A stretch of 64,000 bases of DNA from Methanotrichaceae archaeon (lineage in GTDB: Archaea > Halobacteriota > Methanosarcinia > Methanotrichales > Methanotrichaceae), in contig CAVVKN010000003.1 of the NCBI GenBank assembly GCA_963748825.1, positions 32,001 to 96,000 on the forward strand, given 5' to 3'. Shown piece by piece: positions 1-55,137 of this stretch. The position numbers and the translations under genes are program-made. A model generated the notes under the pieces. It saw only the letters and a program-made list of their open reading frames with translations. It searched no databases and was not told the DNA's origin. Each line of letters begins with the position of its first letter. Position 1 is the stretch's first letter.

Positions 1-1082
1 TGAAATGCCCTTTTCTTTATTGTCGATGCATCATATTCGCCGGGCAAGGTAAACGCAAAACCTACCAGCTGATTTCCTTTGGGTGCCAGCGTAGGATCGT
101 AATTTGAGGTCGGAACCACCCAGGCATAGGGATCGGAGTCAACCCACATCTCCGAGCCGTAGTTGTTAAATATTTTCTTAGTCAGGCCCAGCCATATGGT
201 GAGGGAATTAACTCTTTTTATAGATGTCAAATTCTTGGTGTATTCTGCGGGCAGATTATCGATCAGATAAGGCAGGTCGGATGAACAGCCGGAATAAACA
301 ACGGTATCGCAGTCATAGCTGTCTTCAGAGGTTATCACACCTTCCACTCGCTCGCTGCATTCGATCTTATTCACCGCAACATTGGTTTTGATCTCCACAC
401 TATCCTTAGGAAATGATTCCACTATGGAGCTTACAATGGATTGCAGACCGCCTTTGGGGTATCCCTGGTCTGTGGCGCCTTCCTTTATGAACAGGTCATA
501 TAGTTTTCCTACGTAGGGAACAGTTCTGGGATGATGGGTCTTATTGTCCACGAATCGAGAAATAGGTGCATTTTCTATGGATGTTCCAACCATGAAGTAA
601 CATAGCCAGTCCAGAAATCTTCGCGTCGTTATGGAGACCTTATTCGGAAGAATCTGGGAGAGAGTGATATTGGAAAAATCCTTGCCGGCATTTTTCAGAT
701 ACAGGATATTGAACAACGCCCTCATCAAGAGCAATCTGTCCGTCATGGGAAGCAAGCCGAAAGTCAGCCAGGCATTGATGCTCCATGGGAACGGTTTTAT
801 ATCGTTGCCGATTCTTACATAATATTTTCCAGAAGGGATAAACTGAGGAACTATTTTGAAATATCTGTCCATCAGTTCCTTGAGCGGGCCGTTTTCCAGC
901 CTGGTGATGATGTGAGGGCCTGTATCGACACGATAGCCGTTTACATCATACGACCGGCAGACCCCGCCAATGTAACTCTCCTTCTCCAAGATCACTACCT
1001 TTTTGCCCTCTCTAGAAAGCGCTAGGGCGGACAATAAGCCACTGATTCCTGAACCAATCACAATGACATCTTTACTTTTCAT
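1..1082 (-). CDS. NAD(P)/FAD-dependent oxidoreductase, phytoene dehydrogenase-like (runs off window start)
   Basis: Not in the ORF track. Manual reverse translation from ATG at 1082 gives MKSKDVIVIGSGISGLLSALALSREGKKVVILEKESYIGGVCRSYDVNGYRVDTGPH (GxGxxG dinucleotide fold, DTG motif); GGTGA RBS upstream. Confidence 0.8.
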   Translation of the reverse strand, partial: MKSKDVIVIGSGISGLLSALALSREGKKVVILEKESYIGGVCRSYDVNGYRVDTGPHIITRLENGPLKELMDRYFKIVPQFIPSGKYYVRIGNDIKPFPWSINAWLTFGLLPMTDRLLLMRALFNILYLKNAGKDFSNITLSQILPNKVSITTRRFLDWLCYFMVGTSIENAPISRFVDNKTHHPRTVPYVGKLYDLFIKEGATDQGYPKGGLQSIVSSIVESFPKDSVEIKTNVAVNKIECSERVEGVITSEDSYDCDTVVYSGCSSDLPYLIDNLPAEYTKNLTSIKRVNSLTIWLGLTKKIFNNYGSEMWVDSDPYAWVVPTSNYDPTLAPKGNQLVGFAFTLPGEYDASTIKKRAF

Positions 1083-1464
1083 GATTCACCCATTATTATA
1101 CGAACCTGGAAATCAGCAGTTTTTTTCTCCATCTTCTAGAAAGCACCCCAACTGAATAATAATATTACCGTGGACATGTTATACTTTTTCCAGATTGCCT
1201 TTCTCGAATCTATTCGCGTATTCTTTCGCTAGATTTATTAAGGCTTTTGGCTTTGCGGGGCTCCATTTCAATTTAACCAATTGGCCTGCATGCATAGGAA
1301 ACACAATATCAAAAACACCCACCGGCTAAAAAAACCCGGCGCTCGATCAGAAGGCTCGGGTGTTTGGTCGAAAAGAGCCTTTATATCTGATAAGGTGAAT
1401 CCTTGCGCCTTGCACATTTACATAAAGGAATCGAGCATGCAGATGGTTTAATGCGTGGGATGAC

Positions 1465-1746
1465 ATGATCACCAGGGAAGATGTGGAGCACATCAGCTGG
1501 CTTGCCAGCATCAAGATCGAGGATGAGGAGAAAGATGAGTTAGTGGAGCATTTCAACTCAATTTTGGAATACTTCCACCAGCTGGATGAGGTGGACACCG
1601 AGGGAGTAGAGCCCACCTATCGTGTTGTAGACCTAGCCAATATCTTTCGAGAGGATGTGGCCTTCCAGTCCCTCTCTCAGGACCAGGCGCTCAAGAATGC
1701 GCCGCGCACGGAAAATGGCTACTTTAAGAGCCCCAGGATTGTGTAA
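1465..1746 (+). CDS. gatC: Asp/Glu-tRNA amidotransferase subunit C
   Basis: MITREDVEHISWLASI...REDV...ALKNAP...GYFKSPRIV; directly upstream of gatA. Confidence 0.95.
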   Translation: MITREDVEHISWLASIKIEDEEKDELVEHFNSILEYFHQLDEVDTEGVEPTYRVVDLANIFREDVAFQSLSQDQALKNAPRTENGYFKSPRIV

Positions 1747-1748
1747 TC

Positions 1749-3167
1749 ATGCTCTCGGAATTAAAGGCCAGGCTATTAGCCGAATCATGCGAGGAGTACC
1801 TTTGCCGGCTCTTTGAGAGAATCGAGAAGAGCTCGCTTAATGCCTTCACTACTTTAGCCAAAGAGAGCGCATTGAATGAGGCCAGACAGTTCGACAAAAA
1901 TCCCAGCCAGGGCCTCTTAGCGGGAGTGCCCATCGCCATCAAAGAGTGCATCTCCACCAATGGAATTGAAACCAATTGCAGCTCTCGAATACTGCGCGGA
2001 TATATCCCGCCCTATGATGCCCATGTCATCGAGCGCCTCAAGGCGGAAGGGGCCATCATCGTTGGAAAGACCAACATGGACGAGTTTGCTATGGGCACCT
2101 CCACGGAGACGAGCTGCTTTGGGCCGACAAAAAATCCCTGGGATCAGTCATGCGTTCCGGGCGGCTCCAGCGGCGGAAGCGCTGCTGTTGTGGCCGGGGG
2201 CGAAGCGCCCTGCGCATTGGGTTCGGATACGGGCGGCTCAGTGCGCTGTCCTGCATCCTTTTGCGGCGTTGTGGGACTCAAGCCCACCTACGGCCTGGTC
2301 TCACGCTATGGCCTAGTGGCCTATGCCAACTCCCTGGAGCAGATCGGCCCGCTTACCCATACTGTAGAGGATACCGCTCTTCTCATGGAGGTCATTTCAG
2401 GGCACGACGGACGGGATTCCACATCGGCTGAGGGAGAGCGTCGCAGTTATTTGCCGGGCCTGAAAGACGGCATCGCCGGCCTGAAGATCGGCATTCCCAA
2501 GGAGTACTTCGGCGAGGGAGTGAATGAAGATGTGGAAAAGGCCGTTTGGGACGGCATTCATACCCTGGAATCACTGGGCGCATCCTGGCAGGAGATCAGC
2601 CTGCCCCATACCCGCTATGCTCTGGCCGCCTACTATGTCATTGCCATGAGCGAGGCCTCCTCCAATCTGGCCCGCTTCGACGGTCTGCGCTATGGCTCCC
2701 GTCAGGGGGAGGATAAGGACTGGCATACTACATTCTCGGCTATTCGCGCAAAGGGCTTTGGGCCGGAGGTGAAAAGGCGCATAATGCTGGGAACCTATGC
2801 CCTCTCCGCTGGCTATTACGGTCGCTACTACCTCAAAGCTCTCAAGGTGAGGACGCTGATAAAAGAGGACTTTTTGCGCGCCTTCAAGGAGGTGGATCTT
2901 CTGGCCAGCCCTACCATGCCCATTCCCGCCTTCAAGATCGGTGAGCGCATCAACGATCCGCTCTCCCTCTACATGGCCGACGTCTTTACCGTGCCCATCA
3001 ATTTGGCAGGCGTGCCAGCCATCTCCGTGCCCTGCGGCTTTGCCGGGCGGTTGCCCGTGGGCCTGCAGCTCATAGGCCCGCACTTCGGTGAGGCGGCGGT
3101 CCTGAAGGCCGCTCAGGCCTTCGAGGCGGCCACGCCTTTCCATGAGGCCAAACCGGAGGTGATCTAG
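1749..3167 (+). CDS. gatA: Asp/Glu-tRNA amidotransferase subunit A
   Basis: Amidase signature GKTNMDEFAMG, PGGSSGGSAA, GSDTGGSVRCPA; EVKRRIMLGTY. Confidence 0.97.
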   Translation: MLSELKARLLAESCEEYLCRLFERIEKSSLNAFTTLAKESALNEARQFDKNPSQGLLAGVPIAIKECISTNGIETNCSSRILRGYIPPYDAHVIERLKAEGAIIVGKTNMDEFAMGTSTETSCFGPTKNPWDQSCVPGGSSGGSAAVVAGGEAPCALGSDTGGSVRCPASFCGVVGLKPTYGLVSRYGLVAYANSLEQIGPLTHTVEDTALLMEVISGHDGRDSTSAEGERRSYLPGLKDGIAGLKIGIPKEYFGEGVNEDVEKAVWDGIHTLESLGASWQEISLPHTRYALAAYYVIAMSEASSNLARFDGLRYGSRQGEDKDWHTTFSAIRAKGFGPEVKRRIMLGTYALSAGYYGRYYLKALKVRTLIKEDFLRAFKEVDLLASPTMPIPAFKIGERINDPLSLYMADVFTVPINLAGVPAISVPCGFAGRLPVGLQLIGPHFGEAAVLKAAQAFEAATPFHEAKPEVI

Positions 3168-3168
3168 A

Positions 3169-4584
3169 ATGGAAGACGTCATCATTGGCCTTGAGATTCA
3201 CGTGCAGCTCAACCGCCTGCAGTCCAAGATGTTCTGCGGCTGCTCCACGGCTTATCATAACTCACCGCCCAACAGTCATACCTGCCCCGTTTGCCTGGGG
3301 CTGCCCGGCTCTCTGCCTGTCATCAACAAAAAAGCGGTAGAGTGCGGCATAAAGGTGGGGCTGGCCTTGAACTGCACGATCGAGGAGGAGACGCTCTTTT
3401 ACCGGAAGAACTACTACTATCCAGATCTTCCCAAGGGCTTTCAGATCAGCCAGTACGACTATCCTCTGGCCGTTCAGGGCCACATCATGATCCTGGGCGA
3501 CGATGGAGCGGAAAGAAATATTCGCATCAACCGGGCGCATATGGAGGAGGACCCCGGACGGCTGGTGCACGCGGGCACCATTGACAAGGCCAAGTACACC
3601 ATGGTGGACTACAACCGCTGCGGCATGCCCCTGCTGGAGGTCGTGACCGAGCCGGACCTCTGCTCACCCAAAGAGGCGCGCGCCTTCCTGGACAAGCTCA
3701 GAAGCATTCTCGAGTATCTGGATGTCTTCGACGGCTCACAGGAAGGGTCCATGCGCGTTGATGCCAATATATCCCTGAAAGGCGGAGACCGATCTGAGGT
3801 CAAGAACATCACCGGCTTTAAAGGCGTGGAGAAGGCCCTCTCCTACGAGATCACCCGGCAGAAGAACCTGCAGCGAAGGAACATCAAAGTGGTGCAGGAG
3901 ACGCGCCACTTCGATGAACTGCGTAACGTCACCGTCTCCATAAGAAGCAAGGTGGGCGCTCACGACTACCGCTACTATCCAGAGGCCGATTTGGCAGTCA
4001 TGCGCGTCGCTCCTTGGGTGCCGGAGATAAGAGCTGCGCTCCCTGAGCTGCCCGACGTCAAGCGGGAGAGGTTTGTCAAGCAGTACGGTCTGGCAGATGA
4101 TCATGCCAAATCCCTTACATCGGAGATCAAGCTGGCCAACTTCTACGAGGCCGTCGCGGCGCGGGCTTCGCCCAAGCTGGCGGCGGTCTGGATCGCAGAT
4201 GTGCTCAAAGGCGAGCTGAACTACCGGGATCTGGCCATCGAGAGCTTCCGGGAGGAGCACATGGCTGAGATAGTGCAATTGCTGGAGAAGAGCACGATCA
4301 GCGAGGACGGGGCGGTGCAGATCATACGCGAGCTGCTGGACAAAAAGGGCGGCACGCCTCAGGAGATCGTCCTGGCCCTGGGTCTTTGCAGAGCGGAGGA
4401 CGATGCCGTGCAAAAAGCGGTGCGAGAGGCCGTGGTGGAAAGTGCTGCGGCAGTGGCCGACTACCGGGCGGGAAGCGAGCGGGCACTGAACTTCATTGTG
4501 GGCCTGGTCATGAAGAAGACGCGAGGCAAGGCTGATGCCGGCGAGGTGCACAAGCTGGTTAAGGAAGAAGTGGACAAGGCCTAG
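3169..4584 (+). CDS. gatB: Asp/Glu-tRNA amidotransferase subunit B
   Basis: IGLEIHVQL, RKNYYYPDLPKGFQISQY, HMEEDPG, GSMRVDANIS, DYRYYPE. Confidence 0.97.
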   Translation: MEDVIIGLEIHVQLNRLQSKMFCGCSTAYHNSPPNSHTCPVCLGLPGSLPVINKKAVECGIKVGLALNCTIEEETLFYRKNYYYPDLPKGFQISQYDYPLAVQGHIMILGDDGAERNIRINRAHMEEDPGRLVHAGTIDKAKYTMVDYNRCGMPLLEVVTEPDLCSPKEARAFLDKLRSILEYLDVFDGSQEGSMRVDANISLKGGDRSEVKNITGFKGVEKALSYEITRQKNLQRRNIKVVQETRHFDELRNVTVSIRSKVGAHDYRYYPEADLAVMRVAPWVPEIRAALPELPDVKRERFVKQYGLADDHAKSLTSEIKLANFYEAVAARASPKLAAVWIADVLKGELNYRDLAIESFREEHMAEIVQLLEKSTISEDGAVQIIRELLDKKGGTPQEIVLALGLCRAEDDAVQKAVREAVVESAAAVADYRAGSERALNFIVGLVMKKTRGKADAGEVHKLVKEEVDKA

Positions 4585-4783
4585 ATGGCTTTTGTCCCCC
4601 GTGAATAGAAGGATGAGCGCTCTCGCGTCGTCAGGGCTCGTTTCTCGATGAAATGCTCTTCTTTATTTCCTGGAAGGAGTACGTCTTGACTTTTCCTGCC
4701 TTCAGTTCCATCATCTCGATTCACCACTGCTTTGTGCGCCAGGGATTGCTCTTCTTCGTTTATCATTGCTTTTATGATTGAGT

Positions 4784-5301
4784 TCACTTAGCTACCTGCC
4801 AGCGTCCGCCTTTATCTGGGCCGATGCGCTGAATGCGACCTTTTGCTTTCATTTTTTCTATCTGCATCTTGATGGCTCTCTCCGTGATGCCGATGTGTAG
4901 GGCAAGGTCTGCGATAGTAATCCCCGGATCATTCTGCATGAGTTCGATGATTTTCCGGGAAGTTTTCTGGGAAGCTTTTCCCGCTAACCCCGCATCATCA
5001 AGCTCTTTGCGGTGAATGGTGGCGATGAACATGCATCCTTCTCGGTCGTCTGTAAAACTGATATCCGGCCAGTCCTCCAGAGCGCGTTTAATTCCGGAAC
5101 CCAATCCTTTGTAAGGCAGCAGCCCTTTGGCCGCGTAGGACACGAGAATTGGATTTCGGATATTCGAAATGCCTGAGGGGATTTTTTCCACGGTCAGGTT
5201 GTTTGGCAGATGGCCGGGACTGATAATCTCAATGCGGTCGTTGAAAATGAATAGGCGAATCGTGGCGTTCACGAGATAGTCCCGGTGGATCAGCGCGTTG
5301 A
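4784..5301 (-). pseudogene. C-terminal fragment of a RecG-like/ATP-binding transcriptional regulator (HATPase-like + HTH)
   Basis: Homology starts abruptly at VNALIHRDY (upstream of the called GTG), then DRIEIISPG, RNP, GLGSGI, and a C-terminal HTH ending RIGPDKGGRW. The N-terminal half is missing. Confidence 0.7.
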
Positions 5302-5389
5302 CCCAAGTCTGCCAGCCTTTGCAATCAAATATATGCAGCCGGACCCAAGTCCGGATTGAGCCGAAGCTCTCATCGCATCGGGAAGATTA

Positions 5390-6943
5390 TCATCCATTTT
5401 TCTCCTTGGCAAACCAGGCCCGGCCTTTCTCGGTGAGGCGGTATTTCTGCAGGCTGCTCCTGGGCTTGTCCGGAATGGTCAGCTCAACAAGACCCTTGGC
5501 TAGTGCTGGATCAAGATAGCGTTTCCGCATATGCGTTCTGTCCCTCAGACCAAGTTTGCTTCGGATCTCCAGATTGCCCAAAGCACCACACGAGTCCAAT
5601 AAAAGCAAGAGCACTTCTACGGCAGGGTTGACTGGTGGAGTGACTGGTAGAGTGACTGGTAGAGTGACTGGTAGAGTGACTGGTGGAGTGACTTGGGGGG
5701 TGACCGCTTTGAGGGCCAGCTCAGGCTTCCTGCGTATGATGGTAACGAAACCGTCCGTCAGGTAGAATTCCGGTTCCAGGAGGCCGGCATTGCGGCAGCG
5801 TTCAATCATATCCCCAACGCCCGTCCCCATGCGTTCGATGTATTTGGTGAGATAGAGCGATTCTGCGAGCAGAGGGTTGCCGGGAACCGAGCCGTGCGGC
5901 AGCCGGAGCCTTGCCAGGGTCAGCGTGGGCGGCAAAGTTCCTGGATTCCATACCTCCAGCCTGTCTGAGAAGAGCATCACCTGAATGCTGCCGTTGCTGG
6001 TGTAGTCACGATGGGCTATCGCATTTACTATCGCCTCTCGCACCACCTCAGGCGGCATCTCGTAAGCCACCGGTGCTTGCGTGCTCTTCTCTCGCGTGCC
6101 TACAGCCAGATTGATCTTGGAGAGCACAAAATCCACGGCCTGATCTACCAGATCGAAGGCGGTTCCCTTGTAAACCTGGTAGAAGGGAATGGGCTTTCGG
6201 ACATCGGTTCCATGGAAATGAGCGCACTTGACCTCGGAAGAGATAAGAAAACGCTGTGGCTTGTTGCCGAAGAGAAGAACCGCGGCGTTGGTCGGCAGTC
6301 CGTTCTTGAGCAGGTTCAAGTGCTCGAGCACATGAACGGGGAGTGTGTCTTCCGAGAGCGGAAAGCCTCGGGCGCGGCGGGCTATTCCCAGGAAGAGCCG
6401 AATTTTCTCGGACGAGAGGTCTTCCATCGTGGCGTCCGGACAGGGGGTGGCATCGAAGGGGCCAAAGCGGAGCAGTTCTTTAGCCGCGAGGAAGTCTACC
6501 AAACTGGCATAGATGGATGGAAGCAGTTCGGCAGATGAGAGAAATCGGCGTCGAATCAATTGTGCGCCAGCCTCTGCAATCAAGGCCTGCATTTTTGGGT
6601 GTTTGCCGGAATCGGTTGCCCCTTTGACGAAAACCAGGCGATGCTTGCCAAGGCGGGTGGCTTCGCAAAACTCGCGGTGAGTGGGAGAGAGTCCGTCACT
6701 GTCCTCTCTTCCGTAATCATTTCCCAGGAGGGCTACATAGATGTCAGAGGAGCCTACCTCGGCGAGGTAGACCGCATCTGCACGCCGGTCGGCTGCGGGA
6801 AGGTCTTCGAAGAGGAAAACATCGAAGAACCGGCACAGCAAGGCATCATCCCTGAGGTAGGCCTTAAGCGCCTGCCGTTCATTTTCCATCTCCTTTTGCA
6901 CGGAACTGACGAATACCTTTAGGCGAATCATCTCAGGTTGCAC
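5390..6943 (-). CDS. DUF4062-like N-terminal domain + RecG-like ATP-binding domain + C-terminal HTH protein
   Basis: N-terminal VFVSSVQKE..ERQAL...EV..SDIYVALLG..YG...SPT.REF; REAIVNAIAHRDY; IERMGTG; C-terminal PDKPRSSLQKYRLT. Confidence 0.8.
   Translation of the reverse strand: MQPEMIRLKVFVSSVQKEMENERQALKAYLRDDALLCRFFDVFLFEDLPAADRRADAVYLAEVGSSDIYVALLGNDYGREDSDGLSPTHREFCEATRLGKHRLVFVKGATDSGKHPKMQALIAEAGAQLIRRRFLSSAELLPSIYASLVDFLAAKELLRFGPFDATPCPDATMEDLSSEKIRLFLGIARRARGFPLSEDTLPVHVLEHLNLLKNGLPTNAAVLLFGNKPQRFLISSEVKCAHFHGTDVRKPIPFYQVYKGTAFDLVDQAVDFVLSKINLAVGTREKSTQAPVAYEMPPEVVREAIVNAIAHRDYTSNGSIQVMLFSDRLEVWNPGTLPPTLTLARLRLPHGSVPGNPLLAESLYLTKYIERMGTGVGDMIERCRNAGLLEPEFYLTDGFVTIIRRKPELALKAVTPQVTPPVTLPVTLPVTLPVTPPVNPAVEVLLLLLDSCGALGNLEIRSKLGLRDRTHMRKRYLDPALAKGLVELTIPDKPRSSLQKYRLTEKGRAWFAKEKNG
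5628..5704. repeat. 12-bp tandem repeat (GTGACTGGTRGA, ~6.4 units) encoding a VTPP/VTLP linker
   Basis: Read directly: ttgactggtgga, gtgactggtaga x3, gtgactggtgga, gtgacttggggg, gtgac. Confidence 0.9.
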
Positions 6944-11956: not shown

Positions 11957-12031
11957 TGCTCCCGTCGGGATTTGAACCCGAGTCGAAGGAGTGAGAGTCC
12001 TTCATGATTGGCCGAGCTACACTACAGGAGC
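11957..12031 (-). tRNA. tRNA-Glu (anticodon CTC)
   Basis: Reverse complement GCTCCTGTAGTGTAGCTCGGCCAATCATGAAGGA-CT-CTC-AC-TCCTTCGACTCGGGTTCAAATCCCGACGGGAGCA folds as a cloverleaf. Confidence 0.96.
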
Positions 12032-14277: not shown

Positions 14278-14351
14278 TGGGCCCGACGCGATTCGAACGC
14301 GTGATCCCCGCCGTGTAAGGGCGATGTCATAACCAGCTAGACCACGGGCCC
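14278..14351 (-). tRNA. tRNA-Val (anticodon TAC)
   Basis: Reverse complement GGGCCCGTGGTCTAGCTGGTTATGACATCGCC-CT-TAC-AC-GGCGGGGATCACGCGTTCGAATCGCGTCGGGCCCA. Confidence 0.96.
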
Positions 14352-51396: not shown

Positions 51397-52152
51397 TTGC
51401 TGGTCTTTGAGAAACAGTCCAATCCCTACCTCAATGCAGTCCATTCTCAGGTCGAACAGGATGTCTTGAGGAGGCTTCAGAAATCCTTTGACAACTTCTT
51501 TCGAAGAGTTCGCGAAGGGGCTCGAAAAAAAGGCTACCCCAGGTTCAAGTCCATTAACCACTATCGCTCGGTTACCTATCCACAGTCCGGGTTTAAGCTG
51601 AATGGCTCTCGGCTGACACTTTCAAAAATTTTCGGCACAATTAGAACCTTTGTGCATAGGCCGATTGTGGGCAGGATCAAAACCTGTTCGATCAAGCGAG
51701 ATAAGACAAATGCATGGTATGTCATATTTACGACCGAGCTTGAGAATCCAACCAAGCAGGAGACCAAGACCACGATCGGAGTAGACCTTGGCATCACTCA
51801 TGCAGCCGTAACTTCGGACGGTCAGTACTTCGACTATCCAAAGTACTATTTCCAAGCTGAAAAGAAGAATCGAGCTGCCAATAAATCGTTGTATCGCAAG
51901 GAGCTCGGTTCCAATAACCGGAAGAAAGCCCAGACAAAGTTGGCCCGGATCGCAAAGAGGGTAACCAACCTTCGAGAGGAGTTCTTGCATCAGGTATCCT
52001 GGAAACTTGTAAACTCGGCTGACAGAATCATATTCGAAGATCTGAGCATCCAGAATATGCTTAAGAACCATTGTCTGGCAAAGCATATTCAGGATGTCTC
52101 ATGGGGAAAGCTAATACGCTTCACGGTGAGCAAGGCTGAAAGAGCTGGCTGA
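51397..52152 (+). pseudogene. tnpB: Truncated TnpB (no N-terminal HTH, zinc finger, RuvC-III or IS ends)
   Basis: GYPRFK, YPQSG, GVDLG, FEDL; stops at KAERAG. Confidence 0.88.
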
Positions 52153-52162
52153 ATCCAGAAGA

Positions 52163-52336
52163 TCATGCTAAATCTCTCACCGCCTCCAGCACCTTTTTCG
52201 CCGCCGAGCACCTCTCCGCCCTGGAGGTATCTGCCGCCATCTGCTCCAGATCCCCGACGTTGATTTGGCCCATCTTGAACTTTGTAACAAGAATGCCGGT
52301 CATGACGGCATCGCTATGCTTCGCTTTCTTAGCCAA
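52163..52336 (-). CDS. 57-aa hypothetical protein
   Basis: Manual translation from TTG (purine-rich RBS): MAKKAKHSDAVMTGILVTKFKMGQINVGDLEQMAADTSRAERCSAAKKVLEAVRDLA. Confidence 0.55.
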   Translation of the reverse strand: MAKKAKHSDAVMTGILVTKFKMGQINVGDLEQMAADTSRAERCSAAKKVLEAVRDLA

Positions 52337-52489
52337 TTTTCCCCCTACCTAACACGCCTGCCTGGATCTCTCTGGCCTGGCCCCTCAGGTAGTCGATGGA
52401 GGAGTAATTAGCTTGTGCTCAGCCGTTCGACCGCCAACTACAAATATTCATAACGATCATATAGATAGTTTGCCGCTTCACGCCATGAT

Positions 52490-52856
52490 AGGGTGGCGGG
52501 CGTGCCGTGGGCTTAACGTATCTGATGATGCTCTGATGACAAGGGTGTTTGCTCCACCATGGAGCAACATGCCGCTAGCTCCTAAAGGCTGGTTGGTCTT
52601 GATCCCTTGGTACAGGAGATGCATGCCGTCGTGGCACTGCATTTGGCTACGAGCCTGTGAGGCTGATATTTCGGCGGGCTGAAAAAGTTGCGCGCTGTAA
52701 CAGGCGCAGTAATCTGCCGGATCTCACGCTAATACACGGTCGGGGCATGAAACGGCACAAGTAGAAGTCGAAGGCGAGAGGGCGAGCACGAGGCCCCATG
52801 AGAACGGGTTCCCATAAAACGGACGCTGTGTGAGATTCCAGCGCTTGTGCCGCCTT
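52490..52856 (+). ncRNA. Candidate large structured non-coding RNA of unrecognised family
   Basis: Nested long-range helices, several local hairpins, an 11-bp crossing complementarity, G-U pairs on the + strand, upstream TATA-like box, no credible ORF (see findings). Confidence 0.6.
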
Positions 52857-53488
52857 CGAGCCCGGCTTATTAGAGTCGAGCTTCGGGCAGGGTCAGGCCA
52901 ACACTATGCGGTGATTGGCTCCTCCTAAAAGGGCGCTGTGGATCGGCGCTGGCCTGCCTGAGACTTGATGTATCATTTTCTTGGCTATTTCTTTTGGGGT
53001 GGAGATGGTCTTTTCTAACTTGAAGCGAAAGCCTTTTATCTCGGCAATTGACGTATGGTATATTGGCGAAAGTCGATGGCAGTTTTTCCCCTCCTACATC
53101 CAATTGACTTTCTCCTCCCACCTTCTTATTCATCAAACGCTTTCATAAGGGCCTAAAGCATCCTGCCTCAGCTTTCTAAAAGAAAGACTTATAGCCTGAC
53201 TCGTCCTTCATTCCTTCAAGAACGCCAGCCATAAGGAGAAGAGGCAATTAAGTCGGAGCGATGAGGCTTGAGGACTGGCCAGGCCCGCAGCTCCATTTAT
53301 CTCATTCAGCATAATCGATTTTATGGGCTCGCTGCAGGTTGTACGCACCGCCTCATACAACAGCTCGGTATGATGAAAAACGGCTAAAAGAGCTCTTTGA
53401 GCTAAGTCGTCATTTCATAGTTTATAGGCATAAAACAAAATCCTCTCTGCTATTGATCTAATCAATATGCCCCGACATAAATTTGTAA

Positions 53489-55137
53489 CCTGACCTCCCC
53501 AAAGTTTAGGCACACATATGAAGTGCATCCAGGATTTCTCGCTGTTTCTTGGTAATCTCAGTTGTGATTTTCTCGCCATCCGGCAAGATCATTAGCTTGA
53601 TCTTTTCTAGTTCAGTGAGCAGTCCTTCCACTGAATATCGTTTATTCAGCTCGGCATTGACCATGAGCCTGGTCAGCTTCATTCTTAAGATCAGAGCAAG
53701 AAAAGCGACGAACAGATAGCCACTCAAACTGTTATTGGTTCTTAGGTTTGTTGGCATCAGTTCAATGTCGTTCTTCAATACATCGAATCCTTTCTCGACG
53801 ACATCCTTGCTTCTGTAAAGTGAAAGACAATCATTCCAAGAAAACTCGCCCCGATACAGCAGAATAAACTTACCCATCTTATTGATGGCCTGAGAGACGG
53901 CATTTTTTCTGAGGGAGACCTCAAATTTTCCGTCAATTGCTTTCCATTCGATGAACTTGGCATCCTTTTTTGCCGTTTCCCTGAAAACCACACTCGGAAT
54001 CATCCAGCTCTTTAAGGTCACAGCCTTGAGCCGTTCCATTAAATCGTATAGCCGCTTATAGAGAGTACTTCGTTCCAACTGCTCTCGCTTCTGATCGTAA
54101 TATGCGTATCCTTTCAGCTTGTTTTTGCCTACCTCGATGTCCACAGGCATGACAAAAAGCGGTTCTTTCTCGTAGAGTTCCAAATTCTCAGGATCATCGA
54201 TGCTGCTATGGATGGCGGATATCGCCTCTTTGACATTTTTGAGAGTACTTGTTGGGGGGATGATGAACGACAAATCCGCTGAGACCATCTCATGGATATT
54301 GGCAGTCGAGAAGAAACCACGATCCATGATCATAGTATAATTCTGAACACCCAGGGCCTTTATTTTTTTGACTGTATTCGTGAGGGTAGTTACATCCGAG
54401 ATGCTTCCTGGATATAGATCATACATTACCGGTATGCCTAGATCCTTGTCCACAATCAGAGACAGGTTGATCTGAGGCAGATCGAGACCATCTCGATTAT
54501 AACCGTATTCCAGTAGGCCTATGTTTTGAGAGTAAGAGGACAAAGAAGTGATATCATAAACCAGAGTGCTGCATGTTGAGATTCTTTGGATTAGTCGATG
54601 AGCGAATTCCAGATTCGCGGTGCTCTCACCGATACGGCTTAGCATTCGAGAAAGGCTCTGAGAGGATAGGGGAAGATCAGGATGGTCTTCCGATAGAATT
54701 GTGCCTTCATACCAGCTTTGGATATGGGTTAATGCTCGGGGACGCAAAGCAAAATTCATAGCCAGAGTTAAAACAGGCCAGACTTCTTTGCTGGGCAAGA
54801 CTCCAGAGAGAATTTCGTCTAGTTTAAGGTCTTCTGTTATCTTTTTCAGTGGAACGAATTCGCCATGTGATAGAACTTTCTTTGGTATTTTTCCCTGAGA
54901 TCGGACCTTGACAGGAACTCCATTAACATTCTTGCCGAGGTACTTGCTCTTCTGGCGAATTTTCTTCTTTTCTTTGTCGTAGTAAGGAGTGATTTTGTAT
55001 ATGTATTCAATTCCACTTATATTTTTTATTCGATTAAACGATTTCATGTGCATATTTAGGCACATAATATTATTTATAGATTTCGGCTATAGATAACGAA
55101 AATTGTTTAAATATGCCTAAATCATGGGGAGGTCAGG
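53489..55137 (-). mobile_element. IS1634-family insertion sequence, 1649 bp
   Basis: 24-bp terminal inverted repeats CCTGACCTCCCCA(AAG/TGA)TTTAGGCA; 6-bp target duplication TTGTAA at 53483-53488 and 55138-55143. Confidence 0.93.
53506..55065 (-). CDS. IS1634-family DDE transposase
   Basis: YDITS, GYNRD...PQINL, PG...D, MDRGF, Y..KD.VEK.F..LK. Confidence 0.93.
   Translation of the reverse strand: MCLNMHMKSFNRIKNISGIEYIYKITPYYDKEKKKIRQKSKYLGKNVNGVPVKVRSQGKIPKKVLSHGEFVPLKKITEDLKLDEILSGVLPSKEVWPVLTLAMNFALRPRALTHIQSWYEGTILSEDHPDLPLSSQSLSRMLSRIGESTANLEFAHRLIQRISTCSTLVYDITSLSSYSQNIGLLEYGYNRDGLDLPQINLSLIVDKDLGIPVMYDLYPGSISDVTTLTNTVKKIKALGVQNYTMIMDRGFFSTANIHEMVSADLSFIIPPTSTLKNVKEAISAIHSSIDDPENLELYEKEPLFVMPVDIEVGKNKLKGYAYYDQKREQLERSTLYKRLYDLMERLKAVTLKSWMIPSVVFRETAKKDAKFIEWKAIDGKFEVSLRKNAVSQAINKMGKFILLYRGEFSWNDCLSLYRSKDVVEKGFDVLKNDIELMPTNLRTNNSLSGYLFVAFLALILRMKLTRLMVNAELNKRYSVEGLLTELEKIKLMILPDGEKITTEITKKQREILDALHMCA

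Follow-up and report, generated by a model that had tools for sequence, protein, structure and literature searches.

A probable new family of large structured RNA, encoded in multiple copies by one family of methanogenic archaea

Large structured RNAs whose function is unknown are very few, and those known to us are bacterial; each one solved so far has opened new biology. The nearest in kind are OLE, GOLLD, ROOL and raiA, the large ‘ornate’ bacterial non-coding RNAs of unknown or partly known function (PMC12286853, PMC9723947, PMC10861870). They are several hundred nucleotides (nt) long, multi-domain with a conserved fold, independently transcribed and lineage-limited, with functions that are not evident from sequence. 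Here we describe a candidate RNA gene that is like them in these respects, in kind only. It lies in a 64 000-nt window, the whole stretch of DNA analysed, from the genome of a Methanotrichaceae archaeon (assembly GCA_963748825.1, contig CAVVKN010000003.1, positions 32 001 to 96 000), and all positions below refer to this window. An earlier note on this DNA had proposed an independently transcribed, multi-domain RNA of about 370 nt that could be assigned to no family; every sequence quoted in it was found where it had been placed. We consider the RNA to represent a genuine, new family of trans-acting structured non-coding RNA, with a probability of roughly three in four. The gene is multi-copy, its product of about 480 nt is stable, abundant and folded into three domains, and it is restricted to one methanogenic archaeal family.

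Extent, promoter and transcription of the gene

The candidate RNA occupies 483 nt of the + strand (52488-52970), with a promoter module on its 5' side and a T-rich stretch on its 3' side. The features of the gene are as follows.

52427 to 52480, + strand: promoter module, TCRACCGCM-AACTACAAATATCTATAACGATTATATAG-ATAGTTTGCCGC, 54 nt, near-invariant
52488 to 52970, + strand: mature RNA, about 483 nt, from RNA-seq cover, minimum free energy (MFE) and the 142-pair consensus described below
52976 to 52982, + strand: T-rich stretch (ttttctt), read from the sequence, at which RNA-seq cover ends
52985 to 53333, + strand: downstream repeat, outside the RNA, which accompanies some copies; second promoter-like module at 53026 to 53126

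The promoter module is near-invariant at 47 sites (55 loci searched) and stands at a fixed distance upstream of the RNA. It holds two AT-rich boxes, at 52442-52453 and, as ATATAGATA, at 52459-52467; the second is the TATA-like box of the earlier note, which is now seen to sit inside a conserved 54-nt block. These first 54 nt are the most conserved part of the repeated unit, while the DNA on their 5' side is unrelated among copies, giving a sharp left border. RNA-seq cover begins about 25 nt 3' of the second box, which fits a transcription start about 25 nt past a TATA-like box. At the other end, where cover fits the T-rich stretch, this stretch is a likely archaeal termination signal; in most copies the RNA is likewise followed by T-rich runs. 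The module occurs four times in the genome under study, three times ahead of a copy of the RNA and once ahead of a protein gene. In the latter case (L005:1751-2745, G000:C20), 46 nt of the module precede a gene for a secreted, CarboxypepD_reg-containing protein of 319 amino acids, so the RNA is not its sole user.

Twenty public runs, from 12 studies covering sediment, freshwater, wetland, ice and peat, match part of 52200-53400, and 10 of the runs are recorded as RNA. An expression profile was drawn from the contigs of four metatranscriptomes (X1-X4, from four studies) aligned to the stretch. The summed contig depths below are whole-community sums, not calibrated expression, and the contigs give neither strand nor exact ends.

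52364 to 52445: 0 in all four runs
52446 to 52486: 0 in three runs, 637 in one
52487 to 52855: 1.1e5 to 3.4e6
52856 to 52978: declining across bins
52979 and beyond: 0-95 in the first bin; after that, at most 2 in X1-X3, and 691-977 over 53184-53388 in X4

The number of matching contigs per run ranged from 590 to 6032, which fits very deep cover of many variants. The conserved archaeal-type promoter and the discrete deep cover from about 52487 to about 52970 agree with the independent transcription that had been proposed. The flanks and the 3' fall-off were judged from contigs only, where zero cover cannot prove absence. The length is about 483 nt in place of about 370 nt, and the hairpins out to 52965, whose membership had been left undecided, belong to the RNA. 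In X2 and X3, some contigs jump back from within the RNA (e.g. at 52748, 52628 and 52576) to its 5' end, carrying 12-30 promoter-proximal letters at the joint; these could be partial tandem copies, precursors started further upstream or assembly chimeras.

These observations bear on the idea that the stretch is a cis-acting leader or riboswitch, or the mRNA of a small protein. An 89-codon frame (52413-52682) does overlap the RNA, which is followed by a second promoter-like module and by genes that vary. We nevertheless find the idea scarcely credible. RNA cover ends at about 52970, and the genes upstream and downstream vary by copy: the flanking open reading frames (ORFs) form no common downstream family, no conserved neighbour gene was found, and the single copies in another genus have no neighbour in common. 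Since the neighbouring genes differ among copies, the RNA is not a leader. Nor does it behave as a protein-coding gene. The scan for ORFs found no long one in 52153-53505, the longest ORF varies in place and length among 46 copies, and of 405 indels only 68 are a multiple of three long, so that there is neither a conserved open frame nor any regard for one.

RNA cover of the downstream repeat is about zero in X1-X3 and low in X4. The second promoter-like module within it (53026-53126, + strand, GAAAGCCTTTTATCTCGGCAATTGACG...) stands alone at many sites in relatives (positions 600-700 of the query, which starts at 52427) and, in locus L014, lies directly 5' of an ORF resembling phosphoglycerate mutase. 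The module has the look of a portable promoter or 5' leader.

Copies across the family and the conserved fold

Within its own genome, the stretch 52427-53333 is repeated at 92% identity on contig C23 and 52426-53137 at 83% on C17, the DNA to the left being unrelated; a profile search yielded three full copies and about seven partial, diverged ones. Among 40 relatives, full copies were found in all 24 other genomes of the genus and in none of 16 genomes from two other families. The matches are mosaic, covering query positions 1-907, 1-737, 1-707 or only 1-545. The smallest recurring unit runs from position 1 to about 545 (52427 to about 52971), and longer units add the downstream repeat. Two 5' subfamilies, A and B, are told apart by roughly the first 60 nt and by a variable arm; common to both are the promoter, a GCUCU junction, the hairpin GUUGCGCGC...GGCGCAGUAAU, GCGGCAC and the entire 3' part. 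Some stretches are invariant inside otherwise variable copies.

We also used a search model of the 3' part (R1), which does not include the domain III long stem. Of the 74 family genomes searched, R1 detected the RNA in 52, at 1-12 copies each and spread over 10 of the 15 sampled genera; it detected none in 76 genomes from four other families of the class. A second genus has one or two copies per genome, about 410 nt long, of the second-subfamily type and with the same promoter; three of its genomes that were searched again had one. One relative has two copies of the RNA gene in tandem, at a spacing of 1443 nt (L011:58-788 and 1501-2368; L035 is the same place).

The fold was judged on two alignments: A3, of 46 copies from the family, and A4, of 50 copies including at least six other genera. 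Both were made with MAFFT L-INS-i and hence are not structure-aware, and the copies are related to each other. The four structural units are listed here.

52493 to 52758, + strand: domain I, a multi-branch body, from RNAalifold on 27 type-A copies mapped on A3; helices 52493-98/52753-58, 52499-509/52735-46, 52510-25/52643-55, 52531-34/52615-18, 52619-27/52633-42, 52656-62/52722-28, 52672-77/52714-19 and 52687-96/52703-13
52540 to 52609, + strand: optional variable arm of domain I, CAAGG/CCTTG around two hairpins
52773 to 52863, + strand: domain II; outer helix 52778-88/52848-56, hairpins 52793-96/52806-09, 52810-12/52821-23 and 52824-28/52839-43
52876 to 52968, + strand: domain III, a four-way junction; stem of about 19 base pairs, 52876-96/52949-68, bearing three hairpins

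Each helix of domain I is paired in 76-97% of cases, with compensatory changes in most helices; the 52505/52739 pair, for example, changes from C-G to U-A in nine copies. The optional arm is absent from some genomic copies (L021, L036 and copies in G012 and G020), and its helices covary where it is present. The domain II hairpins are 92-98% paired, with compensatory changes (50 copies). Domain III is the most conserved part of the RNA. Its long stem is 83-88% paired with eight compensatory pairs and, being outside the R1 search model, this pairing was not fitted in.

Folding energy depends on the extent chosen. On the 367 nt of the earlier note (52490-52856), it was no better than that of dinucleotide shuffles (z -0.70 on the + strand, -0.01 on the - strand), and the proposal would have failed if judged on energy alone. 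The full 52488-52970 has an MFE of -203.8 kcal/mol (z -2.96, none of 100 shuffles as good), and domain III alone one of -48.0 kcal/mol (z -3.63, none of 200). Comparative scores for three models are given below, with slid versions of each model and 500 shuffles as controls.

75-pair model of the earlier note on A3: 82.6% of cells paired (slid 37-47%); 39 pairs compensatory (shuffles 28.5 ± 2.9, 0/500); covariation 0.169 (slid 0.05-0.08)
142-pair RNAalifold consensus of 27 type-A copies, mapped on A3: 88.1% paired (slid 36-43%); 66 pairs compensatory (shuffles 41.2 ± 3.9, 0/500); covariation 0.194 (slid 0.05-0.08)
46 pairs of the domain II hairpins and domain III on A4: 90.2% paired (slid 35-50%); 29 of 46 pairs compensatory (shuffles 16.2 ± 2.2, 0/500); covariation 0.265 (slid 0.06-0.10)

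All three models show covariation and support the large, multi-domain RNA that had been suggested, although the 75-pair model was drawn from the window sequence itself and so had a head start over its slid controls. All-against-all covariation scans were noisy, because GC-rich segments yield many spurious helices, and served as leads only. The consensus pairs comprise 914 G-U cells against 198 A-C cells, which places the RNA on the + strand, as had been argued.

Most of the local helices drawn from the single sequence are retained, and all of these also appear in the RNAalifold consensus of the type-A copies: CAAGG/CCTTG (88.7% paired), TTGCTCC/GGAGCAA (7/7 pairs compensatory), GATGCATGCC/GGCA-TGCATT (85% paired), CGGCGG/CTGCCG (72-76%, its inner hairpin 91-96%) and CGCTG/CAGCG (96.7%). 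Two longer-range helices give way to others. In place of GTGCCGT/ACGGCAC (52752-58), 52499-52509 pairs with 52735-52746, so that GTGCCGTG meets CACGGTC (52735-41), not ACGGCAC, with the C-G to U-A changes already mentioned; and in place of 52528-52536/52740-52748, CUCU (52531-34) pairs with GGAG (52615-18), closing the optional arm and remaining as a simple hairpin in copies without it. The proposed closing helix, 5' AGGGTGGC with GCCGCCTT (52849-56), may or may not hold. It is 82% paired, and its equivalent in the other subfamily can be read by eye in L027 (GAGGGCAAGC with GCTTGCCTTC), but its 3' segment also pairs with 52778-88, so that it competes with the outer helix of domain II; either is possible in both subfamilies.

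The more elaborate motifs fared less well. The candidate pseudoknot (52719-29/52828-38) has doubtful comparative support: it is 73.8% paired and four of its nine pairs change on both sides, but at one pair 26 of 45 copies are unpaired, whereas GATCTCACG pairs locally with TGTGAGG (helix 52656-62/52722-28) in 90.6% of cases with 7/7 pairs compensatory. The mutually exclusive pairings taken to hint at a switch are 66-71% paired, values that 21-164 of 500 shuffles match. For the supposed L7Ae K-loop, judged by eye, the GA motifs are not conserved among copies (UGAUGA...CUGA reads GAUAAUGCUCUGUUUGG in part of the type-A copies and CUGAGCUCUUAAGG in those of type B), and the stretch is a junction strand in the consensus; the T-loop-like sequence, on an alignment read by eye, is not conserved. 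A far 5'/3' closing helix was also considered and rejected, as it is 90.9% paired but near-invariant and clashes with the domain III stem.

The RNA belongs to no Rfam family, as the earlier note had suspected. With Rfam 15 at the gathering threshold, the whole window yielded only two tRNAs, both elsewhere; at E up to 10, the stretch 52100-53500 gave three chance-level matches, all outside the RNA, and six divergent loci searched at E up to 1 gave none. The tRNA genes are ordinary (11957-12031 and 14278-14351, - strand; Rfam tRNA, 56 and 62 bits). These searches bear on two further explanations. One is that the RNA is a diverged housekeeping RNA, such as RNase P RNA, signal recognition particle (SRP) RNA or a group II intron fragment, and has escaped the models. 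Its size and high GC content are comparable. The true RNase P RNA lies on another contig (RF00373, G000:C9:33744-34048, 216.2 bits), as does the SRP RNA (RF01857, G000:C23:164670-164984, 193.5 bits); no Intron_gpII or group-II-D1D4 model matches at E up to 10, and the RNA has its own promoter. Together with the absence of any permissive match in the window copy or the six divergent loci and with a gene that is multi-copy and not universal in the family, this makes a missed housekeeping RNA a very remote prospect.

The other is a large ribozyme, self-cleaving, self-splicing or otherwise catalytic, which is hinted at by the ‘ribozyme-like complexity’ of the earlier note, itself an impression of size, by a multi-domain conserved fold like those of large ribozymes and by the invariant stretches inside variable copies. 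We regard this as improbable, given the lack of any Rfam ribozyme or intron match at E up to 10 or in divergent copies and the presence of RNase P RNA elsewhere in the genome. No host gene surrounds the RNA, which leaves nothing to splice. Some RNA contigs skip 52540-52613, the optional arm; no joint is consistent across runs save this loss, which is also present in DNA.

Genomic setting

In the window, the RNA gene is flanked by a truncated TnpB gene (51397-52152, + strand) and an IS4-like DDE transposase gene (53506-55065, - strand). The TnpB fragment encodes 251 amino acids with the OrfB_IS605 domain alone (residues 113-224, E 1.9e-21); the first 145 nt match C10:143840-143984 at 90% identity in the same genome, which has five further, more diverged TnpB-like regions (35-43% identity). 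The transposase (519 amino acids, DDE_Tnp_1) adjoins 114-117 nt (within 53484-53600) that are 99-100% identical to sites on contigs C10 and C6, from which we infer that this insertion sequence spread recently. Between TnpB and the RNA, a 57-codon N-terminal gene remnant (52163-52336, - strand) has no Pfam match; the DNA of 52158-52480 recurs at C20:13773-14076 (80% identity) and that of 52171-52338 at C21:64166-64333 (89%).

This setting gives substance to the main rival, namely that the RNA belongs to a mobile element, either as a TnpB guide of the omega-RNA type or as the transcript of a non-autonomous element moved by transposition or site-specific recombination. The gene has dispersed copies, three full ones and about seven fragments in one genome; its left boundary is sharp, with unrelated flanks beyond; it sits between two transposon genes in the window; it recurs with a DUF1699 gene as a 1.25-kb unit in 8 of 36 loci; tandem copies occur; and part of the family appears to lack it. 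We nevertheless judge this rival decidedly unlikely. A TnpB omega-RNA is encoded at the 3' end of tnpB and always linked to it. Here, TnpB lies upstream in the window only (36 loci searched): tblastn with the TnpB fragment matched only the window's own two loci, and an omega-RNA was rejected. No nuclease is linked to the RNA. The conserved block spans promoter to terminator, as for a gene under selection; no terminal inverted repeats or target duplications were seen on reading the ends by eye; no match was found in viral contigs (exact 24-mer), plasmids or phages; and genomes of another genus carry a single copy.

The DUF1699 gene (PF08004) lies directly 5' of the RNA in these eight loci, as five full genes and three fragments (e.g. 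L003:1005-1436). It was considered and rejected as a general partner. Only one of the six DUF1699 genes in the genome under study (on C17, C23, where there are two, C11, C13 and C1) adjoins the RNA, and the family is found in 148 of 151 genomes of the class, at 2-21 copies, whereas the RNA is restricted to one family. Nine DUF1699 loci from two sister-family genomes have only the coding region in common, without conserved downstream DNA, which also speaks against a mobile unit. On these three grounds, we regard DUF1699 as a passenger carried within a duplicated unit, although it is still a candidate partner. Its AlphaFold model (pLDDT 85.2) predicts an alpha/beta domain with three C-terminal helices. 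A Foldseek comparison with the PDB gave weak rows only, the best being a retroviral integrase core (E 7.6e-3, TM 0.28), and a PDB sequence search gave nothing significant. An invariant N-terminal R-V-x-S may be reminiscent of serine recombinases.

What the RNA may do and how it compares with known systems

The RNA is transcribed from its own conserved promoter and ends at the T-rich stretch; if it is a new trans-acting family, it would act in trans on its own, most likely as the core of a ribonucleoprotein (RNP). The constant 3' domain III could serve as a handle for a common partner, while the variable 5' body, domain I, would bear features specific to each paralogue. Such a scaffold mechanism is put forward tentatively, by analogy, and we would sooner expect it to need revision. 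With similar reserve, we raise the possibility of an undescribed class of large structured RNA, the first that is archaea-specific and among the top transcripts, in sediments, wetlands and peat, of a globally important acetate-using methanogen family. Its constant 3' four-way junction and diversifying 5' body might suit a machine that is RNA-guided or RNA-scaffolded, or else an RNA that assembles itself or is catalytic, with specificities that differ among paralogues.

Several points weigh against a new trans-acting family as we describe it. The RNA was not found in 22 of the 74 family genomes, including all seven of one genus (91-99% complete), which means that it is dispensable there or too diverged to be seen. 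Four further genera gave no R1 match, and five genomes of the no-match genera, when searched again, had no R1 match better than E 0.1 and no promoter module at up to three mismatches. Long-range pairing in domains I and II is ambiguous, with three possible partners for segment 52843-56 and three for the 5' GGCGGGC. The consensus was scored on the same sequences from which it was derived. Cover drops toward domain III (in X1, the depth in the last three bins is 46,000, 2,200 and 53), so a shorter species ending near 52860-52900, close to the 3' end given in the earlier note, may dominate; and the depths on which abundance is judged are uncalibrated community sums over contigs without strand or exact ends. 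The RNP role, finally, is argued from analogy.

The Methanotrichales are key acetoclastic methanogens and, if the lineage is right, so abundant an RNA is likely to matter for the physiology or genome dynamics of its hosts. It is also accessible to study, with a gene, a promoter, about 100 homologues in about 10 genera, a fold supported by covariation and strong natural expression. For metatranscriptomics, discarding such reads as unassigned would lose a real archaeal signal. In the open full-text literature, the scope of our search (subscription journals and supplements lie outside it), no description of the RNA was found, including in the available parts of PMC5737381 and PMC4405575.

Among known systems, the archaeal RNase P (RF00373) and SRP (RF01857) RNAs are likewise abundant, stable, multi-domain RNAs of 300-480 nt with their own promoters; those are single genes elsewhere in the genome, whereas the candidate is multi-copy and non-universal and matches neither. 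The IMES RNAs, which Weinberg et al. reportedly noticed in 2009 for their extreme abundance in metatranscriptomes, are structured and unclassified; here too, environmental read depth lies far above that of neighbouring genes, although the organisms and sizes are different and the producing genomes are in hand. The omega-RNAs of TnpB and IscB are likewise structured, present in many copies and built on a constant scaffold, and a TnpB remnant adjoins the RNA in the window. An omega-RNA overlaps its nuclease gene or lies right against it, and its end coincides with that of the transposon, whereas our candidate has TnpB upstream in no other locus, has its own promoter and gives no Rfam HEARO match. 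OLE, GOLLD, ROOL and raiA differ in that their Rfam models do not match the RNA, which is archaeal, present in several copies per genome and preceded by a near-invariant promoter module, and shows no sign of membrane or protein partners, a phage context or self-assembly. The RNA thus fits no Rfam family, and its closest analogues are bacterial and alike in kind only.

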